From: a virus
Taxonomy: Duplodnaviria > Heunggongvirae > Uroviricota > Caudoviricetes
DNA: 14,195 nt
Direction: 5' to 3' (one strand)
Virus record (IMG/VR): IMGVR_UViG_2617270940_000003
Part shown: piece by piece, positions 486 to 14,195 of the stretch
Position numbering within the stretch: the first letter of the stretch is position 1
How the letters are laid out: every line of letters begins with the position of its first letter
Translations under genes and position numbers: made by a program
Notes under the pieces: model-generated
Database searches by the model: none
What the model was told of the DNA's origin: nothing
What the model saw: only the letters and a program-made list of their open reading frames with translations

Positions 486-618
486 GCAAGCACCTTAAAA
501 TCACCATCATACACTAAATCAGTAAGTTGGCAGCATTACCCTATTTCTGTAGTCACTTTTGTGGGGACAGTCCACAAAACTGCCAACTTCCGCTTCTTGC
601 TCTTAGCGGACATTAGCA

Positions 619-2231
619 TAGGCTATTTACCATAACGCCTCATTACGCGCACCGCCCAGACTGACTCAGCGCGTTTCTGGCATATCCCCGGTAAAACAAG
701 TAACAAACCACCCGAAAATGAACACCAGAAACGCGACTTAAGAATCTACCCTATGAATGGATATGCACTCAACCGAATCGATCTTGGTTTCAATCTTTTT
801 TATCGGGATCAGGCTTCTTTTTAGGTAACTTCGGGGGCTTAACTTGCTGATGACTTTGCGTTCGGCGCGTAAGCCAGGGATGGTCAGCTTTAGGTTTAAC
901 ATAGTATTTTGAGCGTAAATCAATACGGGCATTATCCACTCGTTCATGGACACTCTTTTCATCATCCAGTGGTATAGGCTCCGGGCCATCAACATACTTT
1001 TCCCAGCCCAGCGCTTTCCCGTCATACAGAACGTTAATTTCACCGTCAAAGTTCTCGCATACAGTAACAACCGAATGCCTAAGTCGATATCCCCGGCTCT
1101 CACTGCGTACCTGAAACGCACTGCTTTTGTACTGGAAAGTGAGATTTTTAGACAGAACGCGCTTCGCCTGTAGGCTGAAGATATAACCCAGTTCCTCTTC
1201 AGAATGGTGCACATCAAGATGAGCATTATCAGTAGTACGAGGCGACGTAGCGAACCGGTTGTTATAGGCTTCAATAAAGGTCGGCAACCATGCATTTGCT
1301 GTTTCAATATCACTGATATTCTGAAGCCGCATTTCTTTGACCAGCCTGTCCTGTAGTGTCTGATTGGCGCGCTCTACCCGCCCTTTTGCCTGCGGGCTGT
1401 TGGCATGGATTGGCTCGATGCCCAGTGTCTTTATCGCACGAGTGAACTGGGTCAGCTCACCTTCCCGCTCTGGGTTATTTACCCTGAATATACTGTGTCT
1501 ATCAGAGTAGAGAGCGAGCGGTACGCCATGATCATTAAGGTAACCCCGGAGGGTTTCCATGTAAGCCCGGGTTGTTTCAGCAGGCACAAAACGCAACGCC
1601 ATCAACGCACTGGTGGCATCATCAATGAAAACGATCAGTGTACATCTGGGGCCTCGATTTTCAAACCAGTCATGAGGTGAGCCATCAATCTGGATCAGTT
1701 CACCGTAAGATGGTCGTCGCATGCGGCGTTGATATATACGGGCAATTTTACGACGGCGTTCACGCCATAACCCCTCTTCTATCATCCACTTTCTGAGAGT
1801 TTCAACGGATAAAGATAAACCGTGTATCTCGCGCAATTTTTCGCACGCAAACGTAGGTCCAAAATCAGCGTAACGGCCTTTGAGGAGTGAAATTACTGTT
1901 GCTCTGAATTCAGTAGAAAAGGAATTATTAGGACGCTTTCCACGTCGGTGGGAAACCAGACCAGAAGGCCCTTCATTTCTATACCGTTGCACCAGACGTT
2001 TAACCTGCCGAATAGAAATGCCAATGCGTGCCGCAGCTTGTTCCTGAGTAATATGTCGATTAATTGACTCCTGAATAATCTGAAGTCGGTGGAGTTCCTT
2101 ATGACTCATCGTAACAGTCTCTTTGATCATGAAAAATCCCCCAGAGAATTGTCTGGGGACATTTTAGAATGGTTCAAAGGGGACATTACAGCTTGGTGTT
2201 AACAATAGCCTGCTTCTCCGTGCCTTTCGGC
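619..2231 (-). mobile_element. Tentative extent of the IS carrying the 446-aa transposase; ends not resolved
   Basis: Only a weak imperfect inverted match between 619-640 (aggctatttaccataacgcc) and the reverse complement of 2210-2231 (aggctattgttaacaccaagc). Hairpins at 2148-2167 (ccccaga-N6-tctgggg) and 2237-2254 (cggagaagc-N0-gcttctccg) lie in or just beyond the transposase leader. No clear target-site duplication found. Confidence 0.3.
790..2130 (-). CDS. DDE-type transposase with N-terminal HTH and rve (integrase-core) domain, ISNCY (IS1202-group) or IS481-like
   Basis: 446-aa ORF. N-terminal HTH (ITQEQAAARIGISIRQVKRLVQRY). Catalytic-core candidates LIQIDGSPHDW (D), LYSDRHSIF (D), GRVERANQTLQ (E). 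Lys/Pro-rich basic C-terminal tail. Family assignment is from motif layout and length, not a search. Confidence 0.8.
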   Translation of the reverse strand: MIKETVTMSHKELHRLQIIQESINRHITQEQAAARIGISIRQVKRLVQRYRNEGPSGLVSHRRGKRPNNSFSTEFRATVISLLKGRYADFGPTFACEKLREIHGLSLSVETLRKWMIEEGLWRERRRKIARIYQRRMRRPSYGELIQIDGSPHDWFENRGPRCTLIVFIDDATSALMALRFVPAETTRAYMETLRGYLNDHGVPLALYSDRHSIFRVNNPEREGELTQFTRAIKTLGIEPIHANSPQAKGRVERANQTLQDRLVKEMRLQNISDIETANAWLPTFIEAYNNRFATSPRTTDNAHLDVHHSEEELGYIFSLQAKRVLSKNLTFQYKSSAFQVRSESRGYRLRHSVVTVCENFDGEINVLYDGKALGWEKYVDGPEPIPLDDEKSVHERVDNARIDLRSKYYVKPKADHPWLTRRTQSHQQVKPPKLPKKKPDPDKKD

Positions 2232-2464
2232 ACGTAAGAGGCTAACCTACATGTGTCTAGCATGAAATTGGCCTCAGATTAATGTTAAGCGTCTTGCAGG
2301 ACGCGTAATGTTAACTGGGGCTTTTCTCTATCTGCCGTTGGTGTCCATGCCCGAGGCAGATAGCCTCAAGCACCCGCAGTCATTCTACTTAACTAAGATT
2401 TCCCCGCAAACCGTTTTTGTCCAGCACAGTAAATATCCAACTAAACCAATGGAGTTCGCTGTAT

Positions 2465-2644
2465 TTACCGCCAGTATTCAATGCACATGACCGCCATGAA
2501 CACCCCTAAAAAAAGGGCATTTATATATCCAAATATTAATATCAAAACATCAACTTTTTCCATATACCTTGCTGTGAAGATGATGGGCATACATGATGCG
2601 AACAACCAGAACGCAACAAACAAAAACTGCAATGCGTTTTTCAT
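2465..2644 (-). CDS. Small hydrophobic protein, 59 aa, two predicted transmembrane segments; function unknown
   Basis: Internal ATG of the listed 72-aa ORF, preceded on the minus strand by a canonical Shine-Dalgarno (gtAGGAGGaataATG). Product MKNALQFLFVAFWLFASCMPIIFTARYMEKVDVLILIFGYINALFLGVFMAVMCIEYWR. AT-rich, island-like context. Confidence 0.4.
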   Translation of the reverse strand: MKNALQFLFVAFWLFASCMPIIFTARYMEKVDVLILIFGYINALFLGVFMAVMCIEYWR

Positions 2645-2901
2645 TATTCCTCCTACAATCAATGTGCAATTACATTTAAACACACCTCAATTTGGCCGGA
2701 CATATAAATATCTAAACCAGAAAAAATCACTTACATAGCGTTACAAACTCTTTAGTCTAAAGGTTCATCGTAAAACATTCCCCATACTTATCAGTCCGTT
2801 CCGCGCCAGGTAGCTCATTGCCTTATCTGGCAACCTGTAATCAGGTTTCCGCTTTTTCAGTTGGCTGGTCGTTTAACCGACATAGTTAATCCATTAATCT
2901 A

Positions 2902-3532
2902 GTTGCCGGATGTTGGTGGATTTTCGCGTTTTAGTTGTTCATAAAAGTGCACAGCTTTAACCAGTTCTTCTGATGTAACCGGGACTGGTGAGGCAGTGAA
3001 TAAGGCCTGAATTTGATAGTTCGGCCTGTCGTTACAATCCTCTTTTTTCGGTACATATTTCCAGTCACCAGACCACTACTTCCCCTGAAAGTCCGTAACG
3101 CTTTTTTCACGTAGCGATATCGCCATGCCACTGGTTTTGCTTGCCCGCCGTTTCATGCCCTTCCTGATAATTAATCTCGCTCATTCATCGCCCCACTCAT
3201 CACAATATGCTTCGACCGGAGTTTTTCCCGCTTCATAGTCATCACGCTAGGATTCGACATCAGCAGCACTTCCACCGCGTAATTCACCATAGTCCATTAA
3301 TAGTTCATCCCGCTCTTCAAAACTGATGTTATATTTAGCTGAACAAAAATCAGCCACTTTGTTCTTCCTCATCGTCTTTTATTTCGTGGTATGAGTAATT
3401 GCAGTAGTTAAAGAAAATTTCTTATGCTCCGTCATGAATTTCATCAGGTGTTGCGTCATCGTCCACTTCGAATACATCCTCAAAATCTCCACCAGCTATT
3501 TCCGTTTCAATAATAATTTTGAACTTTCGCAT
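2902..3532 (-). pseudogene. Run of decayed small phage (nin-region-like) ORFs on the minus strand: fragments in three frames, one in-frame TAG and at least one frameshift
   Basis: Hand translation gives a 36-aa ORF (3425-3532, MRKFKIIIETEIAGGDFEDVFEVDDDATPDEIHDGA); a 41-aa ORF (3251-3372) whose frame continues after a TAG at 3250-3248 as RDDYEAGKTPVEAYCDEWGDE; an ATGA stop/start overlap into MSEINYQEGHETAGKQNQWHGDIAT; and a start-less protein-like frame ...WSGDWKYVPKKEDCNDRPNYQIQALFTASPVPVTSEELVKAVHFYEQLKRENPPTSGN ending at 2902. Confidence 0.4.
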
Positions 3533-3794
3533 TTCACTACCGCCCTTTCGGGCGGCCTCCTGATGTTCTGAGGGTGCAGAAATCCATCCGGTTAAGGATT
3601 AAGTTTTATTTACAGAACTGAATTTAATTATTCAGATATACGTATCTGTAACCTTACGAATCTACTCACTGGATGCCTCTTTCATAAAAATAATCCAGTG
3701 GGTTTTATCGTTTTTTCCCTGTTCGTTGACAGATAACAGGCTTTCTATCTGTCAGTGCCAGAATCTGGCTTACCGGTATTTGCGTTTCATTCCA

Positions 3795-4151
3795 TTAAAA
3801 AATCAGAACGCCGTGCGGCCTCAACACCCGAAAAGCTTCTTTAAATCTCTGTCGCAAATCATCACGCCAGGCATCTTTATTCAGCCGTCCATATTTCTTT
3901 CCCATCCAGGCGTTATCACCAACACGCTCAAGATGCGGAGGGTCTAATACAACCATCGAAAAAGATGCGTCTGCAAATGATAATGCACGAAAATCTGCGA
4001 TAATGTCAGGGCTGATAATCAAGCGTCTCCCATTGCGTAATGTGTATCCTTCTTTTCTGATATCGCTGAATATCGCCCGTTTGTCAGACTTATCGAACCA
4101 GAACATGCGGCTGCCACAGCACATATCAAGAATGGTTGCCGGTGCACTCAC
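3795..4151 (-). CDS. Putative DNA (amino) methyltransferase, probably C-terminally truncated (catalytic motifs I and IV only, 118 aa)
   Basis: ILDMCCGS (AdoMet-binding motif-I-like) near the N-terminus and VVLDPPH (DPPY/H-type motif IV) about 60 residues later. No room for a target-recognition domain. Start overlaps the upstream ORF stop (ATGA at 4148-4151). Downstream sequence is decayed. Confidence 0.5.
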   Translation of the reverse strand: MSAPATILDMCCGSRMFWFDKSDKRAIFSDIRKEGYTLRNGRRLIISPDIIADFRALSFADASFSMVVLDPPHLERVGDNAWMGKKYGRLNKDAWRDDLRQRFKEAFRVLRPHGVLIF

Positions 4152-4570
4152 TGCGCCACGTCCTGAAAATTACCCTGATAGAAAGCCAGTATGCGCTGCA
4201 TAACTTCGCTCTTCCGGCACTCGCGACAGATTATGTTTAGGCGACTGTCGTAGCGACGTATTTCTCCGTCAGGTGATGACCAGATAAGGTCCGGATCAAC
4301 CACAGCAGGTTTCTTCACCTTTGCCCTCGAGAGTTTTTTGCGGGCGTTTTGCCAGTCCTTACGCGCCTGTTCAGAGGGGAATAACCCGTAGCCGGAGTTG
4401 TATACATCGCCACTGGCTACCAGCTCTCTGGCAAGAACGCTCATCAGATATCTAGTCGCACCTGTTTTAGCTTCCAGTTGCCGTAACGTCTCACGGCCGC
4501 TCTGGCGCACGAGTTCCACCACCTGCCATTTAATTTTTTCCCGCTCTTCTTGTGTAAAAACTTTTGCCAC
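4148..4570 (-). CDS. Hypothetical phage protein, 140 aa, basic
   Basis: Complete ORF in an operon-like array, translationally coupled to the downstream methyltransferase fragment; no recognisable motif. Confidence 0.55.
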   Translation of the reverse strand: MAKVFTQEEREKIKWQVVELVRQSGRETLRQLEAKTGATRYLMSVLARELVASGDVYNSGYGLFPSEQARKDWQNARKKLSRAKVKKPAVVDPDLIWSSPDGEIRRYDSRLNIICRECRKSEVMQRILAFYQGNFQDVAQ

Positions 4571-4610
4571 AAGTCCCCCTTAAAATTACCTCATGACCTG
4601 AAATCAACAC

Positions 4611-4994
4611 TTATCCTCTGAAACCAGACGGAATTTCTGTATCCGGTTCAGAAATATGATTAACACAACGCTGTACAGGTGAACGTCCCAGGCGGATGAC
4701 CAGTTCGTCCCATTTTTCGCGGAGCTTTGACGGGCTCATGATGTTTTTTACCCAGAATGGATCTCGCTGAACCCGACCAAACATTTCGCAAATTTGTCTG
4801 TGGCTTCTGCCATCCAGCATCCGCATTGTGCGCACGTCATTGGCCCAGGCAGTCCAGTTAGGCTCTTTTGGTCGCATGATCTCGCCATCATCACTGGCTG
4901 CCTGTTCGTAGAGACCCACGATCCGCCCCCAGATCCACTGCGCACACGCCAAATCCTCCCTGCTACCCCACTGGCGTTTTTTCGCACTAAACAC
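4611..4994 (-). CDS. Probable C-terminal domain of the replication initiator, as a separate ORF because of an in-frame TAG; apparent GTG start
   Basis: Same minus-strand frame as 5025-5630. The only stop between them is the TAG at 5027-5025, followed by ten sense codons (DSLTRNSDAV) and then this ORF. Confidence 0.5.
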   Translation of the reverse strand: MFSAKKRQWGSREDLACAQWIWGRIVGLYEQAASDDGEIMRPKEPNWTAWANDVRTMRMLDGRSHRQICEMFGRVQRDPFWVKNIMSPSKLREKWDELVIRLGRSPVQRCVNHISEPDTEIPSGFRG

Positions 4995-5024
4995 AACCGC
5001 GTCGGAGTTCCGGGTTAAAGAATC

Positions 5025-5630
5025 CTATTCAGTCGTCTGCGGGTCCGGTTGCGAAGCTTCCGGACGAAAAGTGTTTTTATTCTCTGTAGTAATCTCTGTT
5101 GTATTCTCTGTAAGATCATCAGGCCATTTTGACCCGATGACATTGGGTCGTTTTGAACCAATGGAGCGTTTCATTTTGACCTCTTCCATCGTGTCATTTT
5201 GACCTGATGGAGCGGCGCATTTTGAACCGATGGATTCGCTCAATTTGCCACCATCTAAAAGCTCGCTCCCATAGTTGATCGTGTAGAAATTGGTCATATC
5301 GCGCTTTGATTTATTGAGCTTTTCACAACGCAAAAGCCCCAGCGTTTTCAGACTTGCAAACGCGCGCTTTAACGTTGACTCTGACCAGAATGGGAACTGT
5401 TCCAGCCATTGTTCCGTTGTGTTATAAATCCAGCGAACACCATCACATTCCATGCCGGAGTTGGTATCTCTCAACCAGTAGTGCAGTTGTTGCAAAACAA
5501 TGGCTTCGTTTAAGCCAATTTTCATTGCCAGCTGCGTGTTTATAACCAGTGGGCGTTCAGCAAAAAGAAGGCTCATAATTCCATCCAGCTTTTTGTTGGT
5601 ATTGCTGTCGATACGCAAGCTTGAAAGCAA
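5025..5630 (-). CDS. Replication initiator (lambda O-like replisome organiser), N-terminal DNA-binding domain plus linker; ends at an amber codon
   Basis: 201-aa ORF with ...LNEAIVLQQLHYWLRD... helix-turn-helix-like segment and a repetitive linker (SIGSK x3) whose coding DNA is the iteron array. Sits downstream of the Cro-like and cII-position genes. Alternative start Met19 at 5576. Confidence 0.6.
   Translation of the reverse strand: MLSSLRIDSNTNKKLDGIMSLLFAERPLVINTQLAMKIGLNEAIVLQQLHYWLRDTNSGMECDGVRWIYNTTEQWLEQFPFWSESTLKRAFASLKTLGLLRCEKLNKSKRDMTNFYTINYGSELLDGGKLSESIGSKCAAPSGQNDTMEEVKMKRSIGSKRPNVIGSKWPDDLTENTTEITTENKNTFRPEASQPDPQTTE
5124..5233. repeat. Five direct iterons (putative phage replication origin) inside the initiator gene
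   Basis: C(A/G)TTTTGA(A/C)C..GATGG-type repeats starting at 5125, 5149, 5172, 5195, 5218 (23-24 bp periodicity). Flanked at 5081-5111 by three TCTCTGT repeats at 12-bp spacing and an AT-rich tract at 5067-5080. Confidence 0.6.
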
Positions 5631-6078
5631 TTGCTTTTTCTATAAGTTCGTCAGTTTCACGATCCACTACGGCAGGATCAGCAAAAAGCAGTCCGGACTC
5701 CACCACATCGCCATATTCTTTGTTTAACCCGGCGATCATGCACGTGATGCTTTTTCCGTCAGTAATTTCACGATACAACCTGAAATCACTAATCCGGATA
5801 GCCTCCATAATCGCAGGCACTAGCGCCGTGAACTTTTCACGCTTATCCCTGGTGTCGATAGCCTTCCAGCGTTCGAATATCTTCACTCGATTAACACCAA
5901 GCGCTCGCTGATCAACCGCGCCACCTTCATCTGTGACACGCTGAACATCGATGTTCGGGCGCTCTTTCAAAGCCCAGAATGCTTCAGTGATTAATATCGT
6001 CGCCTGCTCCTGTGTCATTCCTGGTCGACATATCCAGGCATCCAGAGCCTCACGAGCCTGTTCAGGAGTGATTTTCAT
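5557..6078 (-). CDS. Hypothetical early protein at the cII position (second gene of the Cro-side operon), 173 aa
   Basis: Complete ORF immediately downstream of the Cro-like gene, overlapping it by 17 nt. No motif recognised. Function inferred only from position. Confidence 0.5.
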   Translation of the reverse strand: MKITPEQAREALDAWICRPGMTQEQATILITEAFWALKERPNIDVQRVTDEGGAVDQRALGVNRVKIFERWKAIDTRDKREKFTALVPAIMEAIRISDFRLYREITDGKSITCMIAGLNKEYGDVVESGLLFADPAVVDRETDELIEKAIAFKLAYRQQYQQKAGWNYEPSFC

Positions 6079-6289
6079 TGTTCAACCGCCCCGCCCGCTT
6101 CGTCTTACGATATTCATCATAAACTTTGGGATCATACTGAAGCTCCCCGCCAGATGCCTCCTGTAGACGCATCGCGCGACCTTCAGGAACCAGTATCCCC
6201 CAAGCAGCAACACTTGCCAGCCTCACTCCTGCGGCATTGGCAAGCTTTGTTTTGCTGCCAAAAAAAGTAATTGCGTCAACTTTAAGCAT
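6062..6289 (-). CDS. dicC: Cro-like HTH repressor, DicC-like (75 aa from Met at 6289; the longer 86-aa frame starts at 6322)
   Basis: HTH segment FFGSKTKLANAAGVRLASVAAW. Divergent from the DicA-like gene across a 48-81 bp intergenic region that contains a palindromic operator. Confidence 0.6.
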   Translation of the reverse strand: MLKVDAITFFGSKTKLANAAGVRLASVAAWGILVPEGRAMRLQEASGGELQYDPKVYDEYRKTKRAGRLNNENHS

Positions 6290-6303
6290 CAAAGCCCCCC
6301 TCT

Positions 6304-6321
6304 TGTTAGACTTTTCTAACA
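6304..6321. promoter_or_regulatory. Palindromic operator candidate TGTTAGA-cttt-TCTAACA in the dicA/dicC divergent promoter region
   Basis: Perfect 7-bp inverted arms with a 4-bp spacer. Same half-site as the palindrome downstream of dicA. Confidence 0.5.
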
Positions 6322-6370
6322 TTATTGTGCGCGGGATACCTAAGTCAAGAAAAATTAGAATTACCTAACT

Positions 6371-6778
6371 ATGGATACAAGAACCCTGGGCCAGCGAGTT
6401 CTGGCGCGACGAAAAGAATTACGCTTAACACAACGAGAAGCCGCGCGCCTCGCTGGAGTTGCTCACGTCACAATTTCACAATGGGAAAGAGACGAAACCC
6501 AGCCAGTCGGAAAACGATTGTTTGCTTTAGCGGATGCTCTGAAGTGCTCACCTACATGGCTAATGTTTGGTGACGAAGACAAGGCACCAGTGCCTGCACA
6601 AGAACTTCATGTGGAAACAGAGCTAACTCCCAACCACAAAGAATTGATCGAATTATTCGATGCTCTTCCATCTTCCGAGCAGGAAGCCTTGCTGTCTGAA
6701 ATGCGCGCAAGAGTAGAAAACTTCAACAAACTCTTCGAAGAAATGCTTAAAGCGCGTAAAAATAAATCAATAAAATAA
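6371..6778 (+). CDS. dicA: XRE-family HTH repressor, DicA-like (repressor of the division-inhibition operon)
   Basis: 135-aa ORF. HTH LTQREAARLAGVAHVTISQWE. Segments ...SPTWLMFGDEDK..., ...ELIELFDALPSSEQ..., ...EMRARVENFNKLFEEMLKAR... match my recollection of E. coli DicA. No S24 peptidase domain. Confidence 0.85.
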   Translation: MDTRTLGQRVLARRKELRLTQREAARLAGVAHVTISQWERDETQPVGKRLFALADALKCSPTWLMFGDEDKAPVPAQELHVETELTPNHKELIELFDALPSSEQEALLSEMRARVENFNKLFEEMLKARKNKSIK

Positions 6779-6813
6779 CATTCTTTTCAAGTGATTAGTT
6801 GCGCCCACCCTTT

Positions 6814-6833
6814 TTGTTAGATCAATCTAACAA
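6814..6833. promoter_or_regulatory. Palindromic operator candidate TTGTTAGA-tcaa-TCTAACAA upstream of ydfA, with a degenerate third copy at about 6851-6867
   Basis: Perfect 8-bp inverted arms with a 4-bp spacer between the dicA stop and ydfA. Partial copy tgttagg-tta-ttctaaa at 6851-6867. Confidence 0.5.
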
Positions 6834-6946
6834 AAAACACTTGCCTCTCATGTTAGGTTATTCTAAATTATTTTCCATCAAGACACCGCACGGTGTTCTC
6901 AGCAAACAGTTCCGCTACCCCGGCGTTAAGGGGAAATGAGGTCAGC

Positions 6947-7102
6947 ATGGATACTATCGATCTTGGCAACAGCGAATCTCTGGTATGTGGCGTGTTCCCC
7001 AACCAGGACGGTACGTTCACCGCGATGACGTATACCAAAAGCAAAACGTTTAAAACCGAAAATGGTGCCCGTCGCTGGCTGGAAAGAAACCCAGGTGAGT
7101 GA
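6947..7102 (+). CDS. ydfA: Small Qin-type prophage protein YdfA-like (51 aa)
   Basis: MDTIDLGNSESLVCGVFPNQDGTFTAMTYTKSKTFKTENGARRWLERNPGE with a GAGG Shine-Dalgarno 7 nt upstream. First gene of the operon leading to dicF and dicB. Confidence 0.75.
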   Translation: MDTIDLGNSESLVCGVFPNQDGTFTAMTYTKSKTFKTENGARRWLERNPGE

Positions 7103-7103
7103 T

Positions 7104-7232
7104 ATGGATTTCGACACAATCATGGAAAAGGCTTACGAAGAATACTTCGAAGGTCTTGCCGACGGCGAAGAAGCTCTCAGCTTCAACGAATTTAAACAGG
7201 CGCTTTCCAGTTCGGCAAAATCTAACGGCTGA
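7104..7232 (+). CDS. ydfB: Small Qin-type prophage protein YdfB-like (42 aa); below the 60-aa ORF-track cutoff
   Basis: ATG 1 nt after the ydfA stop. MDFDTIMEKAYEEYFEGLADGEEALSFNEFKQALSSSAKSNG, stop TGA at 7230-7232. Confidence 0.7.
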   Translation: MDFDTIMEKAYEEYFEGLADGEEALSFNEFKQALSSSAKSNG

Positions 7233-7261
7233 TAAGCGAAACAGCACCGCGAGGAATCAGT

Positions 7262-7480
7262 ATGCAGAAACGAGAACCCGTCATCATCGCGCCAGACTAT
7301 ACCGATGATGAACTTTATGAGTGGATGCGCCAGAAAATTAATGCAGCGCAGGATTTGAAATGGGCCAATGAAACCAGGGCTAAGCAGGCTGAAAATCTGT
7401 CCGCTCTGGAGCAGGATATCACCAATCTGGAAAAAGCAGCGGCATTAAGCATTGCCAGAATGATTACATACCCGCGTTAG
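7262..7480 (+). CDS. ydfC: Small Qin-type prophage protein YdfC-like (72 aa), coiled-coil-like
   Basis: Complete ORF with a GAGGA Shine-Dalgarno; position and length match ydfC of the dicB operon. Confidence 0.7.
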   Translation: MQKREPVIIAPDYTDDELYEWMRQKINAAQDLKWANETRAKQAENLSALEQDITNLEKAAALSIARMITYPR

Positions 7481-7820
7481 TAGCTAATCAACAAAGCTAA
7501 GGTTAGTAATTAAGGAGTTCTCCACGGGTGAGGTGGAGTGCGTGCGCCGGACACGGGTGAGCATCCGGCACTGACAGTTTACTGAAAGGATATTTCCCTG
7601 AAAAGTCAGACCATAACGCGAAAGCGCACGGCGAGGTAGCTGGTTCATAGATAGCCTGTCGTTAAATTTTCGTCGACCGTGCGCTTCCGGTTGTGGCAAC
7701 CCGCGAAATGGCGCGGCGGTAAGTATGGCGGGGGTATTCCTTCCCCGTTGAGGACACCGGGTTGTCAGGTTGACCATACGCTTAAGTGACAACCCCGCTG
7801 CAACGCCCTCTGTTATCAAT

Positions 7821-7873
7821 TTTCTGGTGACGTTTGGCGGTATCAGTTTTACTCCGTGACTGCTCTGCCGCCC
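7821..7873 (+). ncRNA. dicF: DicF small antisense RNA (about 53 nt), followed by its intrinsic terminator T-run at 7874-7878
   Basis: Sequence tttctggtgacgtttggcggtatcagttttactccgtgactgctctgccgccc followed by ttttt matches the DicF sRNA as I recall it. GC stem (ggcgg at 7836-7840 pairing with ccgcc at 7868-7872) immediately before the T-run. Confidence 0.8.
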
Positions 7874-8047
7874 TTTTTAAAGTGAATTTTGTGATGTGGT
7901 GAATGCGGCTGAGCGCACGCGGAACAGTTAAAACCAAAAACAGTGTTATGGGTGGATTCTCTGTATCCGGCGTTAATTGTTAACTGGTTAACGTCACCTG
8001 GAGGCACCAGGCACTGCATCACAAAATTCATTGTTGAGGACGCGATA

Positions 8048-8236
8048 ATGAAAACGTTATTACCAAACGTTAATACGTCTGAAGGTTGTTTTGAAATTGG
8101 TGTCACTATCAGTAACCCAGTATTTACTGAAGATGCCATTAACAAGAGAAAACAAGAACGGGAGCTATTAAATAAAATATGCATTGTTTCAATGCTGGCT
8201 CGTTTACGTCTGATGCCAAAAGGATGTGCACAATGA
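8048..8236 (+). CDS. dicB: Cell-division inhibitor DicB (acts via MinC), 62 aa
   Basis: Internal ATG of the listed 97-aa ORF, with a GAGGA Shine-Dalgarno. MKTLLPNVNTSEGCFEIGVTISNPVFTEDAINKRKQERELLNKICIVSMLARLRLMPKGCAQ matches recalled DicB. Confidence 0.85.
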   Translation: MKTLLPNVNTSEGCFEIGVTISNPVFTEDAINKRKQERELLNKICIVSMLARLRLMPKGCAQ

Positions 8237-8424
8237 ATTCAGCATTTGTGCTTGTTCTGACAGTTTTTCTTGTTTCCGGAGAGCCAGTTGATATTGCAGT
8301 CAGTGTGCACAGGACAATGCAGGAGTGTATGACTGCAGCAACCGAACAGAAAATTCCCGGTAACTGTTACCCGGTCGATAAAGTTATTCACCAGGATAAT
8401 ATCGAAATCCCGGCAGGTCTTTAA
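8233..8424 (+). CDS. ydfD: YdfD-like small membrane lysis protein, 63 aa
   Basis: ATG overlapping the dicB stop (ATGA). MNSAFVLVLTVFLVSGEPVDIAVSVHRTMQECMTAATEQKIPGNCYPVDKVIHQDNIEIPAGL with a hydrophobic N-terminal segment. Confidence 0.8.
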   Translation: MNSAFVLVLTVFLVSGEPVDIAVSVHRTMQECMTAATEQKIPGNCYPVDKVIHQDNIEIPAGL

Positions 8425-8517
8425 AACAGTTCCGTAATAAATATCCGGTTTCATTCTTATATGCCAGCAATGGCAGGGATTTGTTCATCCTTAAATCTGT
8501 CATGAGGTTAAAACAAA

Positions 8518-10989
8518 ATGAGTAAAGTCTTTATTTGCGCCGCTATTCCTGACGAACTGGCAACAAGGGAAGAAGGCGCTGTGGCTGTAGCCACAGCCAT
8601 TGAAGCTGGCGACGAACGCCGTGCTCGAGCAAAATTTCACTGGCAGTTCCTGGAACATTATCCGGCTGCTCAGGACTGCGCTTATAAATTTATTGTCTGC
8701 GAGGATAAACCTGGCATACCCCGCCCTGCCCTCGATTCATGGGATGCTGAATATATGCAGGAAAACCGCTGGGATGAGGAGTCTGCTTCTTTTGTCCCGG
8801 TTGAGACTGAATCCGATCCGATGAACGTCACTTTTGACAAGCTGGCCCCTGAAGTACAGAACGCTGTCATGGTTAAGTTCGACACATGTGAAAACATCAC
8901 CGTTGATATGGTTATTAGCGCACAGGAATTGTTGCAGGAAGACATGGCAACATTCGACGGACATATCGTTGAAGCGTTGATGAAAATGCCAGAAGTTAAC
9001 GCCATGTATCCGGAGCTTAAGTTGCACGCCATTGGGTGGGTTAAGCATAAATGTATTCCTGGTGCTAAATGGCCCGAAATTCAGGCAGAGATGCGCATCT
9101 GGAAAAAACGTCGCGAAGGTGAACGCAAGGAAACCGGAAAATACACGTCTGTTGTTGATCTCGCCCGCGCCAGAACCAATCAACAGTACACTGAAAATTC
9201 AACAGGAAAAATCAGCCCGGTCATTGCTGCCATTCATCGCGAATACAAGCAGACATGGAAAACACTGGATGACGAACTGGCCTACGCTCTCTGGCCTGGT
9301 GATGTGGATGCCGGAAACATTGACGGCAGCATCCATCGCTGGGCAAAAAAAGAAGTTATCGACAACGACCGCGAAGACTGGAAGCGTATCTCGGCATCAA
9401 TGCGCAAACAGCCTGATGCCCTTCGCTACGACCGCCAGACTATTTTTGGCCTTGTCCGTGAGCGTCCGATCGACATTCACAAAGATCCCATAGCACTGAA
9501 CAAATATATCTGCGAATACCTGACGACAAAGGGCGTGTTTGAGAATGAAGAAACAGACCTGGGCACTGTTGATGTTCTCCAGTCATCAGAAACACAAACT
9601 GATGCAGTGGAAACTGAGGTATCTGATATCCCAAAAAATGAAACCGCGCCGGAAGCTGAACCATCTGTAGAGCGTGAGGGGCCGTTCTATTTCCTCTTCG
9701 CAGATAAGGACGGAGAAAAATACGGTCGCGCAAACAAACTTTCTGGTCTGGATAAGGCACTGGCTGCTGGCGCCACTGAAATCACAAAAGAAGAATATTT
9801 TGCCCGAAAAAATGGCACATACACGGGCTTACCGCAAAATGTAGATACCGCTGAAGATTCAGAACAACCAGAGCCGATAAAAGTTACCGCTGACGAAGTA
9901 AACAAAATTATGCAGGCAGCCAATATCAGCCAGCCTGACGCCGATAAGTTGCTTGCTGCATCACGTGGTGAATTTGTTGAAGGGATTAGTGACCCGAATG
10001 ATCCGAAATGGGTTAAGGGGATCCAGACCCGCGATTCTGTGAACCAGAACCAGCATGAATCGGAACGGAACTACCAAAAAGCGGAACAAAACAGCACAAA
10101 TGCGTTACAAAACGAGCCAGAAACGAAACAGCCTGAACCAGTGGCGCAACTGGAAGTGGAAAAAGTCTGCACCGCCTGCGGTCAGACCGGCGGCGGCAAC
10201 TGCCCTGATTGTGGCGCGGTGATGGGCGACGCAACATACCAGGAAACATTCGATGAAGAGTATCAGGTTGAAGTTCAGGAAGATGATCTGGAGGAAATGG
10301 AAGGCGCTGAACATCCACACAAGGAGAACACTGGCGGCAATCAGCATCACAATAGCGATAATGAAACTGGCGAGACGGCAGATCACTCAATTAAGGTGAA
10401 CGGTCATCACGAAATCACATCCACCAGCAGGACGTGTGACCATCTAATGATCGACCTTGAAACCATGGGAAAAAATCCTGATGCCCCGATCATCTCAATA
10501 GGTGCAATATTTTTCGATCCGCAAACCGGAGATATGGGACCGGAATTTAGTAAGACTATCGATCTGGAAACTGCTGGCGGAGTCATTGATCGGGACACCA
10601 TTAAATGGTGGCTTAAGCAATCACGCGAAGCGCAATCTGCCATTATGACCGATGAAATCCCGTTAGATGATGCACTGTTACAATTGCGGGAATTTATCGA
10701 CGAAAACTCCGGTGAATTTTTTGTTCAGGTTTGGGGAAATGGAGCCAACTTCGACAACACGATTTTGCGCCGTTCATACGAACGGCAGGGGATCCCCTGC
10801 CCGTGGCGTTACTACAACGATCGCGATGTACGCACAATCGTTGAGCTGGGGAAAGCCATAGACTTCGATGCCAGAACGGCTATTCCATTCGAAGGTGAGC
10901 GCCATAATGCACTTGATGACGCCCGTTACCAGGCAAAATACGTTTCAGTTATCTGGCAAAAACTGATCCCGAGTCAGGCTGATTCTTAA
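8518..10989 (+). CDS. Large multidomain prophage protein: N-terminal region of unknown function, CxxC-x7-CxxC zinc ribbon, acidic linker, C-terminal DEDDh-type 3'-5' exonuclease domain (occupies the ydfE position)
   Basis: Uninterrupted 823-codon frame. Zinc ribbon CTACGQTGGGNCPDCG encoded at 10168-10212. Exonuclease motifs: Exo I MIDLETMG (D646, E648), Exo II GNGANFDNTIL (D746), Exo III HNALDDARY (H796, D800). Last gene of the plus-strand operon before xis/int. Confidence 0.85.
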   Translation: MSKVFICAAIPDELATREEGAVAVATAIEAGDERRARAKFHWQFLEHYPAAQDCAYKFIVCEDKPGIPRPALDSWDAEYMQENRWDEESASFVPVETESDPMNVTFDKLAPEVQNAVMVKFDTCENITVDMVISAQELLQEDMATFDGHIVEALMKMPEVNAMYPELKLHAIGWVKHKCIPGAKWPEIQAEMRIWKKRREGERKETGKYTSVVDLARARTNQQYTENSTGKISPVIAAIHREYKQTWKTLDDELAYALWPGDVDAGNIDGSIHRWAKKEVIDNDREDWKRISASMRKQPDALRYDRQTIFGLVRERPIDIHKDPIALNKYICEYLTTKGVFENEETDLGTVDVLQSSETQTDAVETEVSDIPKNETAPEAEPSVEREGPFYFLFADKDGEKYGRANKLSGLDKALAAGATEITKEEYFARKNGTYTGLPQNVDTAEDSEQPEPIKVTADEVNKIMQAANISQPDADKLLAASRGEFVEGISDPNDPKWVKGIQTRDSVNQNQHESERNYQKAEQNSTNALQNEPETKQPEPVAQLEVEKVCTACGQTGGGNCPDCGAVMGDATYQETFDEEYQVEVQEDDLEEMEGAEHPHKENTGGNQHHNSDNETGETADHSIKVNGHHEITSTSRTCDHLMIDLETMGKNPDAPIISIGAIFFDPQTGDMGPEFSKTIDLETAGGVIDRDTIKWWLKQSREAQSAIMTDEIPLDDALLQLREFIDENSGEFFVQVWGNGANFDNTILRRSYERQGIPCPWRYYNDRDVRTIVELGKAIDFDARTAIPFEGERHNALDDARYQAKYVSVIWQKLIPSQADS

Positions 10990-11000
10990 TGTTCAACTGT

Positions 11001-11032
11001 CGCCGGTTGTGACTGGTATTCTGCAACCGGCG
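11001..11032 (+). other. Stable stem-loop (9-bp stem cgccggttg/caaccggcg, 14-nt loop) between the 823-aa gene and the excisionase gene; no T-run
   Basis: Perfect inverted repeat read directly. Not followed by a U-tract, so not a canonical intrinsic terminator. Confidence 0.4.
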
Positions 11033-11061
11033 CTCGTCTAATGTAAGAGATAAAGAAATCG

Positions 11062-11313
11062 ATGAGCGAAGTAATCATGATTGTCTCTCCCGGCAAATGG
11101 GTATCCGAAGAGCAGTTAATTGCGCTGAAAGGAATAAAAAAAGGTACGTTAAAAAAGGCCCGGGAAAAATCGTTTATGGAAGGAAGGGAATATAAGCATG
11201 TCGCTCATGACGGTATGCCATGGGATAACAGCCCATGCTTTTACAACCTGGAAGAAATTGATCGCTGGATTGAGCGCCAGGCATCAGCGAGACCAAGACG
11301 TCATCTTACTTGA
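11062..11313 (+). CDS. Putative excisionase / recombination directionality factor (83 aa, basic)
   Basis: Small basic ORF ending 20 nt before int on the same strand, the lambda-like xis-int arrangement. No motif verified. Confidence 0.55.
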   Translation: MSEVIMIVSPGKWVSEEQLIALKGIKKGTLKKAREKSFMEGREYKHVAHDGMPWDNSPCFYNLEEIDRWIERQASARPRRHLT

Positions 11314-11332
11314 CTAAAAGCCACACTAACTA

Positions 11333-12628
11333 ATGAGAGAAGTTGAAATGAAATATCCGACAGGCGTGGAAAACCATGGAGGGAAATTACGTATCTGGTT
11401 TGTTTATAAAGGCGTAAGAGTCAGGGAAAATCTGGGGGTTCCTGACACAGCAAAAAACAGGCGCGTTGCAGGTGAACTACGCGCCTCTGTTTGTTACGCA
11501 ATAAAAACTGGTGTTTTCGACTATGCAAAACAGTTTCCCTCCTCACGCAATCTGGAAAAATTTGGTGAGGCCCGACAAGATTTAACCATAAAAGAACTGG
11601 CTGAAAAATTTCTGGCACTGAAAGAAACTGAAGTCGCAAAAACATCACTCAACACATACCGTGCCGTCATCAAAAATATCCTGAGCATAATCGGTGAAAA
11701 AAATCTTGCCTCATCGATTAATAAAGAAAAATTACTGGAGGTTCGTAAAGAGCTACTGACTGGATACCAGATCCCCAAAAGTAACTATATTGTTACACAA
11801 CCAGGGAGATCGGCTGTAACTGTAAATAATTACATGACAAATCTTAACGCCGTGTTCCAGTTTGGTGTTGATAACGGTTACTTGGCAGATAACCCGTTTA
11901 AGGGGATCTCGCCATTAAAGGAATCAAGAACCATTCCGGATCCTCTTTCGCGGGAGGAATTCATCCGTCTTATCGATGCGTGCAGAAATCAGCAAGCCAA
12001 AAATTTATGGTGTGTTTCTGTTTATACTGGCGTTCGCCCTGGTGAGCTGTGTGCACTTGGATGGGAGGACATAGATCTGAAAAATGGAACAATGATGATC
12101 AGGAGAAATTTAGCAAAAGACCGTTTCACGGTACCAAAAACACAGGCGGGAACCAATCGGGTCATTCATCTTATTAAGCCAGCAATCGACGCTCTCCGGA
12201 GTCAGATGACATTAACGAGACTGAGCAAAGAGCATATCATTGATGTTCACCTCAGAGAGTATGGCAGAACAGAAAAACAAAAATGCACCTTTGTTTTTCA
12301 ACCTGAAGTGTCAGCGAGAGTAAAAAATTATGGTGACCATTTTACCGTTGACTCAATAAGGCAGATGTGGGACGCAGCGATAAAACGTGCCGGACTCCGC
12401 CATCGAAAATCATATCAGTCGAGACATACTTATGCCTGCTGGTCGCTGACAGCTGGTGCTAACCCGGCATTTATAGCAAACCAGATGGGCCATGCAGATG
12501 CGCAAATGGTATTTCAGGTATACGGAAAATGGATGTCTGAAAACAATAATGCACAGGTAGCTTTGTTAAATACACAGTTAAGCGAGTTTGCCCCAACCAT
12601 GCCCCATAACGAAGCAATGAAAAATTAA
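11333..12628 (+). CDS. Phage tyrosine integrase (lambdoid Int family); likely true start at the ATG at 11348 (MKYPTGVE...)
   Basis: N-terminal arm-binding-like segment (GKLRIWFVYKGVRVRENLGV...GVFDYAKQFPSSR) resembling e14/Rac-type integrases. C-terminal catalytic region with R (VYTGVRPGEL), H-x-x-R (RHTYACW) and the Tyr in ...MVFQVYGKW. Confidence 0.9.
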   Translation: MREVEMKYPTGVENHGGKLRIWFVYKGVRVRENLGVPDTAKNRRVAGELRASVCYAIKTGVFDYAKQFPSSRNLEKFGEARQDLTIKELAEKFLALKETEVAKTSLNTYRAVIKNILSIIGEKNLASSINKEKLLEVRKELLTGYQIPKSNYIVTQPGRSAVTVNNYMTNLNAVFQFGVDNGYLADNPFKGISPLKESRTIPDPLSREEFIRLIDACRNQQAKNLWCVSVYTGVRPGELCALGWEDIDLKNGTMMIRRNLAKDRFTVPKTQAGTNRVIHLIKPAIDALRSQMTLTRLSKEHIIDVHLREYGRTEKQKCTFVFQPEVSARVKNYGDHFTVDSIRQMWDAAIKRAGLRHRKSYQSRHTYACWSLTAGANPAFIANQMGHADAQMVFQVYGKWMSENNNAQVALLNTQLSEFAPTMPHNEAMKN

Positions 12629-12650
12629 TTTAATATTTATCAAATAGTTA

Positions 12651-12758
12651 ACACGTATGACTCTTGAAATCCATAAATTCAAGCGCAGTGCCCAGCCATC
12701 CCGATACTGCTGCTTTCACCAAATCCTTAGTGCTTCTTTCGTGTTTTTCTATTGTCAT
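12651..12758 (-). pseudogene. 5' fragment (36 codons) of an MFS (metabolite:H+ symporter-type) transporter gene truncated by prophage integration; ydfJ-like
   Basis: Minus-strand ORF MTIEKHERSTKDLVKAAVSGWLGTALEFMDF-KSHTC* with the conserved N-terminal MFS signature (G-x-x-L/M-E-F/W-x-D-F), then divergence and a stop within a few codons, right beside int. Confidence 0.5.
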
Positions 12759-12901
12759 AATGGTTATCTCTAAAAAAGAGGTAAGATGCGTACTACTTAC
12801 TCGCCGTTATTGGTATTATTCAGAAAAAGTGAGTAAGACTTTGCAGCAATGTTTTTGATCCTGTTCAAATAAACTAATGGCATCAGCAACTGGATTTGCC
12901 C

Positions 12902-13807
12902 CTATATTTCCAGACACCTGTTATCACTTAACCCATTACTGGCCTGCTGCCGCAGATATTCCCGTGGCGAGCGATAACCCAGTGCACTATGCGGATGCCA
13001 TTCGTTATAATGCTCGAACGCCTCTGCAAGGTTCTTTGCTGCCGTTAACCCGTCTGGTTTAGGCATGATACTGATGTAGTCACGCTTTATCGTTTTCACG
13101 AAGCTCTCTGCTATGCCGTTACTCTCCGGACTCCGCACCGCCGTGTTCTTCGGTTCAAGCCCCAACATCCGGGCAAACTGCCGTGTTTCATTAGCCCGGT
13201 AGCATGAACCATTATCCGTCAGCCACTCTACTGGAGACGCCGGAAGCTCGTTGCCGAAGCGGCGTTCCACCGCTCCCAGCATTACGTCCTGTACTGTTTC
13301 ACTGTCGAAGCCGCCCGTAGTGACTGCCCAGTGCAGTGCCTCACGGTCACAGCAGTCCAGCGCGAACGTGACTCGCAGTTTTTCTCCGTTATCACAGCGG
13401 AACTCGAACCCGTCAGAGCACCATCGTTGATTGCTTTCTTTCACGGCCACTTTGCCAGTATGTGCCCGTTTCGATGGCGGTACAGCGGGTTTTCGCTCAA
13501 GCAACAGCGCATTCTGGCGCATGATCCGGTAAACACGTTTGGCATTGATCGCAGGCATACCATCAAGTTCGGCCTGTCTGCGAAGCAGCGCCCATACCCG
13601 ACGATAACCATACGTGGGCAGCTCTCCGATAACATGGTGTATACGGAGAAGCACATCCGTATCATCTGAGTGACGGCTGCGGCGACCATCTTTCCAGTCA
13701 TCGGTTCGTCTGAGAATTACGTGCAACTGCGCACGCGACACCCGGAGACAACGGCTGACTAAGCTTACTCCCCATCCCCGGGCAATAAGGGCGCGTGCGC
13801 TATCCAC
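12902..13807 (-). CDS. insD: IS2 transposase OrfB (InsD), DDE integrase core
   Basis: 301-aa ORF ending ...[22 protein letters not shown]...; overlaps insC in the -1 frame. Confidence 0.9.
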
Positions 13808-14130
13808 TTTTTTGCACGCCCGTATTCAACGGCTTCTTTAAGGAGTTCATTTTCCATCGTTTTTTTGCCGAGCAGGCGCTGGAGTTCTTTAATCTGCTTC
13901 ATGGCAGCAGCAAGTTCAGAGGCAGGAACGACCTGCTCTCCTGCGGCCACAGCAGTAAGACTTCCCTCCTGGTATTGCTTGCGCCAGAGAAATAACTGGC
14001 TGGCTGCCACACCGTGTTGCCGGGCAACAAGGGAGACCGTCATTCCCGGTTCAAAACTCTGCTGAACAATAGCGATCTTTTCCTGTGTAGTACGCCGTCT
14101 GCGTTTCTCCGGTCCTAAGACATCAATCAT
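13765..14130 (-). CDS. insC: IS2 OrfA (InsC), HTH DNA-binding protein
   Basis: [56 protein letters not shown]... from the ATG at 14130-14128. The ORF-track frame extends upstream to 14175 but the recognised start is the internal Met. Confidence 0.85.
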
Positions 14131-14195
14131 CTGCTCTCCAATGACTAGTCTAAAAACTAGTATTAAGACTATCACTTATTTAAGTGATATTGGTT

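Follow-up and report, generated by a model that had tools for sequence, protein, structure and literature searches.

Among described systems, the closest is the dicBF operon which the cryptic prophage Qin of K-12 carries; its genes follow the order dicC-dicA-ydfABC-dicF-dicB-ydfD-ydfE. Phage exclusion by DicB, lysis by YdfD and control by DicA and Rem have all been published before, and the mechanisms referred to below are taken from the K-12 work (PMC10448788, PMC6832061, PMC8835842). According to published work, DicA cannot be cleaved by RecA and its repression is lifted by the antirepressor Rem, while YdfD has been reported as a lysis protein inhibiting IspG. The precursor of the small RNA DicF is in K-12 a substrate that RNase III and RNase E process (PMC10448788). 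A similar arrangement is seen for lambda Kil and Rac KilR, each of which is a small division-blocking toxin encoded in a repressor-controlled PL operon upstream of recombination or exonuclease genes, as is dicB. No sequence similarity is detectable between DicB and KilR. The modes of action also differ, as DicB acts via MinC whereas lambda Kil, according to PMC3961180, acts on FtsZ via ZipA.

We analysed a stretch of 14,195 nt (hereafter the window), in which an intact dicF-dicB-ydfD module had been pointed out at 7821-8424. The DNA is that of E. coli; its central 12.35 kb (541-12890) is 99.98% identical to CFSAN064036, the most similar complete genome found, with 3 differences in 12,350 bases. 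The insertion site is the one which the cryptic prophage Qin occupies in the K-12 chromosome and which adjoins rspB in relatives, and judged by its sequence the window is a Qin-type prophage (Qin/mEp460-type lambdoid) occupying this site. Both the chromosomal site and the gene order of the operon are common to K-12 and the window. From ydfC to ydfE the two share 98.5-98.9% identity in the non-coding regions, and the layout of the operator half-sites is the same. The differences are found around the shared genes: in K-12 the exonuclease gene ydfE and intQ are pseudogenes, and xis/int are pseudogenes or absent, whereas the window copies are full length; to the right of dicC K-12 has ydfX/ydfW, whereas the window has YdaT and a broken O-like replication gene; and in this comparison only the window segment is flanked by IS1 and IS2.

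The three elements of the module were all recovered, and lie at, or within one base of, the positions given for them in the original prediction. The 53 nt DicF sRNA is found at 7821-7873 on the (+) strand, where the K-12 sequence maps without mismatch, and the Rfam model RF00039 matches 7822-7873 along its whole length (1-52 of 52), scoring 76.7 bits where the gathering threshold is 48. The ftsZ-pairing region and the terminator hairpin are the same as in the characterised K-12 sRNA, and a run of five U follows at 7874-7878. The dicB gene (8048-8236, (+) strand) encodes 62 aa, a protein identical to K-12 DicB, and is named dicB by PGAP in an identical genome; Pfam DicB (PF05358) covers positions 1-62 of 62 with 136.8 bits (cut-off 27). 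For ydfD (8233-8424, (+) strand, 63 aa), 63 of 63 residues are identical to K-12 YdfD and the Pfam family PF07358/DUF1482 scores 91.1 bits (cut-off 25). The concern that these reading frames might differ substantially from DicB, YdfD and DicF is hence settled by alignment, as the RNA and both proteins are identical to those of K-12. The proper Shine-Dalgarno sequences and the ATGA coupling of dicB to ydfD were likewise borne out: GAGGA is located at 8036-8040, 7 nt before the dicB ATG, AAGGA at 8219-8223 before ydfD, and the ATGA overlap of the two genes at 8233-8236. From the identity of the proteins it would follow that DicB of the window inhibits division in a MinC-dependent manner as does that of K-12.

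The same features are kept in diverged relatives. Among 38 other dicB copies on viral contigs the ATGA junction is retained in 35 and the length of 62 aa in 37, and pN/pS in this set is 0.49 for dicB (with a pS of 0.31) and 0.41 for ydfD. The conserved length and junction together with the pN/pS values argue that dicB and ydfD are functional, without saying for whom. Full-length matches to PHROG phage families were obtained for each of the five small proteins of the operon.

Upstream of dicF the operon continues with ydfA (6947-7102, Pfam DUF1391), ydfB (7104-7232) and ydfC (7262-7480), each with a full-length PHROG match; all three are on the (+) strand and their products are 94-99% identical to those of K-12. 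Between ydfC and dicF lies the structured non-coding DicF precursor region (7481-7820, (+) strand), which is 98.5% identical to K-12 and folds into a long hairpin (z = -4.5 for a 580-nt region). Downstream of ydfD a terminator scan located a terminator-like hairpin at 8462-8485 on the (+) strand, followed on the same strand by an exonuclease of 823 aa (8518-10989, Pfam Rv2179c-like, 226.5 bits), the excisionase xis (11062-11313, DUF1233, 108.1 bits) and the integrase int (11333-12628, Phage_integrase and Arm-binding domain).

Further upstream, the module had been assigned to a DicA repressor and its operators, and of this the architecture stands while the identity of the repressor has to be modified. 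A dicC-like gene for a Cro-type regulator (6062-6289, (-) strand, 75 aa by PGAP in an identical genome, Pfam P22_Cro 45.9 bits) has 75% amino acid identity to K-12 DicC, and near-identical genomes have it labelled 'Cro/CI family' or 'DicC'. Divergent from it, at 6371-6778 on the (+) strand, lies a gene for a DicA-type repressor of 135 aa (Pfam HTH_3, 54.2 bits), in which the C-terminal third is conserved, and which is only 55% identical to K-12 DicA at the amino acid level. By alignment it is thus an allele other than K-12 DicA, and it may be hetero-immune relative to the latter. No further Pfam domain, peptidase included, was detected in the 135-aa repressor besides HTH_3, and the lack of a peptidase domain fits with the published finding that DicA escapes RecA cleavage. 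A rem gene was not found within the window; in relatives rem lies to the left of it, and here an IS1 piece fills 1-540.

The operator-like palindrome TTAG-N6-CTAA occurs four times in the window, and all four copies lie in this regulatory region (shuffled sequences are expected to hold 0.14, and none of 200 shuffles reached four). Two of them, at 6306-6319 and 6355-6368, are in the divergent dicC/dicA promoter region, and two, at 6817-6830 and 6853-6866, are downstream of the repressor gene at the operon promoter. The same half-sites are seen in the same two regions of K-12, with different central bases and spacers. We place the equivalent of dicBp at 6817-6869 on the (+) strand, with a putative -35 hexamer TTGCCT (6841-6846) and -10 hexamer TAAATT (6864-6869) positioned by homology to those of K-12 (TTGACC-17-TAATCT). 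Both hexamers are weak matches, and in a consensus promoter scan the operon promoter fell below threshold. The last operator (6853-6866) overlaps the putative -10 hexamer. The regulated unit would be the whole operon from about 6876, upstream of ydfA, and neither the 604 nt that were flagged nor a unit beginning at dicF.

Taken together, we consider it highly probable that the segment is the dicBF operon, that is the early-left (PL-type) operon, of a Qin/mEp460-type lambdoid prophage, holding early host-takeover genes like lambda kil which are intact along with the whole arm. Our grounds are sequence identity, architecture and distribution, while regulation, processing and protein activities are carried over from the K-12 work. 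On this basis the DicA-type repressor would bind the TTAG-N6-CTAA operators, which overlap a promoter lying some 70 nt upstream of ydfA, and keep the operon silent. Derepression, which in K-12 comes about by the Rem antirepressor, by stress or by stochastic switching, would give a single transcript across ydfABC, dicF, dicB and ydfD. RNase III and RNase E would release DicF from it, which is expected to base-pair with the ftsZ mRNA. Transcription reading through the DicF terminator would allow DicB to be translated, MinC to be sent to midcell and the Z ring to be blocked, and YdfD, coupled translationally to DicB, would inhibit IspG and cause lysis. As host-takeover genes of the phage early programme, these would be the counterpart of lambda kil and silent in the lysogen.

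The original prediction took the intact module to be a complete killing or division-arrest cassette on an otherwise degraded prophage, retained for abortive infection or exclusion rather than for propagation. The degradation is real in part. The left edge of the window is cut by the IS1 piece (1-540), a remnant of an ISEsa1/ISNCY (ISEsa1-type) transposase fused to 'ydfW' is found at 790-2130 on the (-) strand, IS2 makes up the right flank (12891-14195), and the PGAP annotation of a near-identical genome has frameshifted pseudogenes from about 2765 to 4106. In addition, position 5027 is A in the window and G in CFSAN064036, which creates a window-specific stop codon at 5025-5027. This nonsense codon splits the O-like replication initiator of 321 aa, the halves of which match the two halves of phrog_391. 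The early-left arm, on the other hand, is wholly intact, from the promoter over ydfABC, dicF, dicB and ydfD to the exonuclease, xis and int.

The arm is also close to that of phages. Over 5773 nt (6909-12681) the window shares 98.8% identity with the complete genome of phage Tritos, in which the order of repressor, ydfABC, dicF, dicB, ydfD, exonuclease, xis and int is the same while the CI/Cro pair differs from that of the window. Complete copies of the 604-nt module are present in 8 phage genome records, those of PhiR42_1, Tritos, HannyBb, mEp460_ev081 and four vB_Eco phages. In Tritos, mEp460_ev081, HannyBb and PhiR42_1 it is 96-99.8% identical and the early-left order is as in the window; these four are complete phage genomes, whereas the window copy sits with the replication-gene nonsense codon and the IS insertions. 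Further, the authors of the K-12 work have reported that the functional phage mEp460_evo81 carries dicB, dicF, dicAC and rem (PMC10448788). We suggest that the toxic genes owe their intactness to the state of the early-left arm, which is intact throughout and closely resembles the arm of living phages.

That host selection instead maintains the toxic module for defence within a decaying prophage, by superinfection exclusion through DicB and/or abortive infection through YdfD, seems unlikely to us. It has arguments in its favour: when induced, DicB protects about 100-fold against lambda and further phages that depend on ManYZ (PMC6832061), the module is very common and often present in several copies, pN/pS is below one for dicB as well as ydfD, and this particular prophage has lost its replication gene and acquired IS elements. 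The K-12 authors argued likewise in 2016, when they remarked that no phage genome with DicB or DicF was known, a premise that is superseded by the functional phage and the phage genome records which carry the module. These phage records show the same conservation as the prophage copies, and in the window the non-toxic exonuclease, xis, int and ydfABC are just as intact as the toxic genes. Counting genomes gave a similar picture. Of 5426 complete E. coli genomes, 3779 (~70%) contain the module, at a median of two places per genome, and 3467 contain the module plus the full exonuclease at 80% coverage; the latter number is an upper bound, as the exonuclease and its upstream spacer alone make up 80.9% of the module-plus-exonuclease query. 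We see no sign in these counts that the toxic genes outlive their non-toxic exonuclease neighbour.

Comparison with known defence systems points the same way. None of the PADLOC models matches YdfA, YdfB, YdfC, DicB, YdfD or the exonuclease, and the repressor gave generic HTH matches only. DicB resembles prophage superinfection-exclusion systems in that its induction cuts infection via ManYZ (PMC6832061), but the protection requires derepression, and derepression alone is enough to arrest or kill the cell. Abortive-infection systems are suicide systems triggered by infection, whereas the published effect of DicB is a block of DNA entry upon artificial induction (PMC6832061), and in the literature on the operon we found no report of abortive infection by YdfD. 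Selective retention as a defence cassette is thus not indicated by the sequence comparisons. Benefits to the host, such as the exclusion of ManYZ-dependent phages by DicB, are a published side effect to which this locus adds nothing. Very improbable is a silent remnant of no present use to phage or host that looks intact because the insertion is recent: the 3 differences from CFSAN064036 do imply a very recent divergence and the operon is reported to be repressed under standard conditions in K-12, but length and coupling junction are conserved across alleles diverged to the extent of the pS and pN/pS given above for dicB, and in K-12 DicF accumulates in stationary phase and induction has phenotypes (PMC10448788).

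Returning to the early-left operon reading, we regard the locus as an intact copy of a well-characterised and ordinary E. coli prophage operon, the identification of which was correct and already known. What is new is confined to the "spacer" in front of dicB, which is a conserved folded RNA. It extends from 7882 to 8031 on the (+) strand, as delineated by a sub-threshold Rfam match, the MFE fold and covariation, and the dicF-dicB spacer of K-12 is 98.9% identical. In the MFE fold of the window it is a multi-branch domain in which 7882-7901 and 8012-8031 form a closing duplex of about 20 bp; the domain further has internal hairpins and, within 7994-8014, a terminal one, and the closing duplex ends 4 nt before the Shine-Dalgarno sequence of dicB. 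Against the Rfam family STnc100 (RF02076) the spacer scores 34.4 bits, below the gathering threshold of 47, with an E-value of about 1e-5. The literature describes STnc100 as a PasD-related prophage sRNA located downstream of stx2. The spacer has in common with this STnc100/PasD sRNA family the closing helix, a first hairpin with a CUnnGCG loop and a terminal CCNGG-AGGCA-CCNGG hairpin. It lacks the terminator which the family has of its own and instead runs into the ribosome-binding site of dicB or kilR.

The leader recurs in other settings. By distant blastn about 165 nt (7868-8032) are found at 80-86% identity in phages with different flanks, namely in Rac-SA53 just upstream of kilR, in the Stx phage 75/02 of Shigella upstream of 'Kil', and in P7 upstream of a terB/tciB-like cluster. 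At these other loci (those of kilR, kil and P7) the STnc100 scores are 33-44 bits and hence also sub-threshold. In Rac-type phages kilR follows a DicF-like sequence and an STnc100-fold leader that are the same as those in front of dicB. Within the literature searched, we found no link of STnc100 to dicB, dicF or kilR; a 1994 work on dicF-like prophage sequences may hold an earlier description of homology flanking dicF in Rac.

We scanned viral contigs for the core TCACCNGGAGGCACCNGGCAC, an exact 19-base pattern, which resulted in more than 120 stretches and 55 representatives of less than 93% identity. For 17 pairs in three helices across these 55 copies, 98.2% of the cells were paired, compared to 86.4% in shuffles and 38-48% with slid partners. 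The number of double-change cells was 106 versus 24 in shuffles, and was reached by none of 500 shuffles; as the sequences were gathered by the exact core, the terminal hairpin in these figures is partly fixed by selection. The first stem occurs for instance as CCCC/GGGG, GCGG/CCGC and CUUU/AAGG.

At the two free positions of the pattern the only combinations are G..C, in 91 copies, and T..A, in 51, and these divide the sequences into two classes. To call downstream ORFs we used a Shine-Dalgarno-plus-ATG criterion, as a plain search for the first ATG gave many spurious ORFs. The G..C class is true STnc100 with scores of 69-161 bits, free-standing and often in tandem arrays beside phage tRNA genes; none of its 91 copies has a Shine-Dalgarno-plus-ATG ORF within 90 nt, and 45 have a T-run. 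In the T..A class, to which the window belongs, a T-run within 120 nt is absent from all 51 copies, of which 47 run into the start codon of a DicB-family ORF (n = 38, 33 nt downstream) or a KilR-like ORF (n = 9, 26 nt downstream). A DicF-like motif precedes 36 of the 51. In this leader class the long duplex is conserved and variation is low, and the covariation for the duplex is consequently thin.

We also compared the positions with the transcript lengths known from K-12 (813+190, 1,146 and 1,608 nt), counted from the putative start of the operon. Counted in this way, 1,003 nt leads to the end of the DicF U-run, 1,146 nt to about 8021, inside the 3' strand of the closing duplex, and 1,608 nt to just after the terminator-like hairpin at 8462-8485. 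The position of this hairpin would thus fit it as the end of the 1,608-nt transcript.

As a possible explanation, which we put forward tentatively, 7882-8031 might be a dedicated cis-acting leader derived from the free-standing phage sRNA STnc100, which accompanies two unrelated genes, dicB and kilR, and in most cases follows a DicF-like sequence. As its duplex ends 4 nt before the ribosome-binding site, we speculate that it could be a processing device of the RNase III type or a translation-control device, setting the amount of toxin after read-through of the DicF terminator. A put-like role in antitermination was also considered and seems unlikely, as the canonical family consists of free-standing sRNAs with their own terminators.

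The flagged module alone matters little, as the defence reading had already been proposed and partly tested, and functional phages with the operon had been noted before. Of some value is that present phage collections weaken the case for domestication by showing that dicBF is not confined to defective prophages. The structured leader common to dicB and kilR is the one lead that deserves a bench test, and it is directly approachable in K-12. That two division inhibitors should have this leader fold in common suggests a so far unstudied layer of control over the division inhibitors of prophages.

The apparent spacer between dicF and dicB (window 7882-8031, plus strand) holds an RNA of the STnc100/PasD fold, which has covariation support along with a sub-threshold match to the prophage sRNA family STnc100 in Rfam (34.4 bits, below the 47-bit threshold). 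In other phages the gene directly 3' of the same leader type is either dicB or kilR, which is unrelated to dicB, whereas copies of canonical STnc100 are free-standing. True STnc100 units were also detected as tandem arrays of 2-5, spaced about 250-480 nt, directly 3' of phage tRNA gene clusters in the IMG/VR contigs L016, L026, L028 and L044. A further STnc100-like element (43 bits) is found in phage P7 (L006, NC_050152) at 2501-2616. In the P1-like phages P7 and D6 this element lies within the C1-controlled tRNA-ban operon, and the element is followed closely by terB and by a TciB-like gene for 'inhibition of cell division'.

In the DicF precursor region, the long hairpin contains one of the three differences between the window and CFSAN064036, the most similar complete E. 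coli genome found, with G at window 7734 in place of T. In the record of phage PhiR42_1 (L005, PV340562) the annotation lacks both dicB and dicF, and two minus-strand 'hypothetical proteins' are annotated across the DicF precursor and dicB (6785-7485). Their equivalents in the window are 111-aa antisense ORFs at 7484-7819 and 7849-8184, both on the minus strand, and these are probably spurious. Further, 237 nt with 98.7% identity to the E. coli dicF region occur near the end of the 254-kb jumbo-phage record of Aeromonas phage AP1 (MT713136.1, 249916-250152), for which contamination or a chimeric assembly is a more likely cause than real transfer.

Another single-base difference from CFSAN064036, A instead of G at window 5027, creates a stop codon (5025-5027) on the minus strand inside the gene of a 321-aa O-like replication initiator (4611-5576). 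The resulting pieces of 183 aa and 127 aa correspond to the two halves of phrog_391. An exonuclease gene on the plus strand (8518-10989) is full-length and encodes 823 aa, with an Rv2179c-like 3'-5' exoribonuclease domain at the C-terminal end; 'ydfE' of K-12 is what remains of the N-terminal part of this gene after truncation by IS2.

The prophage segment is bounded on the left by a partial IS1 (1-540, 95% to IS1A) and on the right by an IS2 (12891-14195, 96% to IS2E of K-12), which has intact insC and insD ORFs and begins immediately past the integrase and attachment region. A sok/hok-mRNA match on the minus strand (2204-2375; Rfam, 104.1 bits) has no Hok-like ORF at its locus, and homology to the hokD locus of the complete phage genome Tritos ends at 2205, where an ISEsa1-type transposase remnant starts. 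The match looks like a hok/sok locus that was decapitated by this IS.

The DicA allele of the window (6371-6778; operators at 6306, 6355, 6817 and 6853) shows only 55% identity to K-12 DicA, and 986 genomes have the whole of the 2.2-kb region with this allele, compared to 3779 for the dicF-dicB-ydfD module alone. The TTAG...CTAA half-sites are common to both alleles while the 6-nt centres differ, and the window allele may be a hetero-immune variant.
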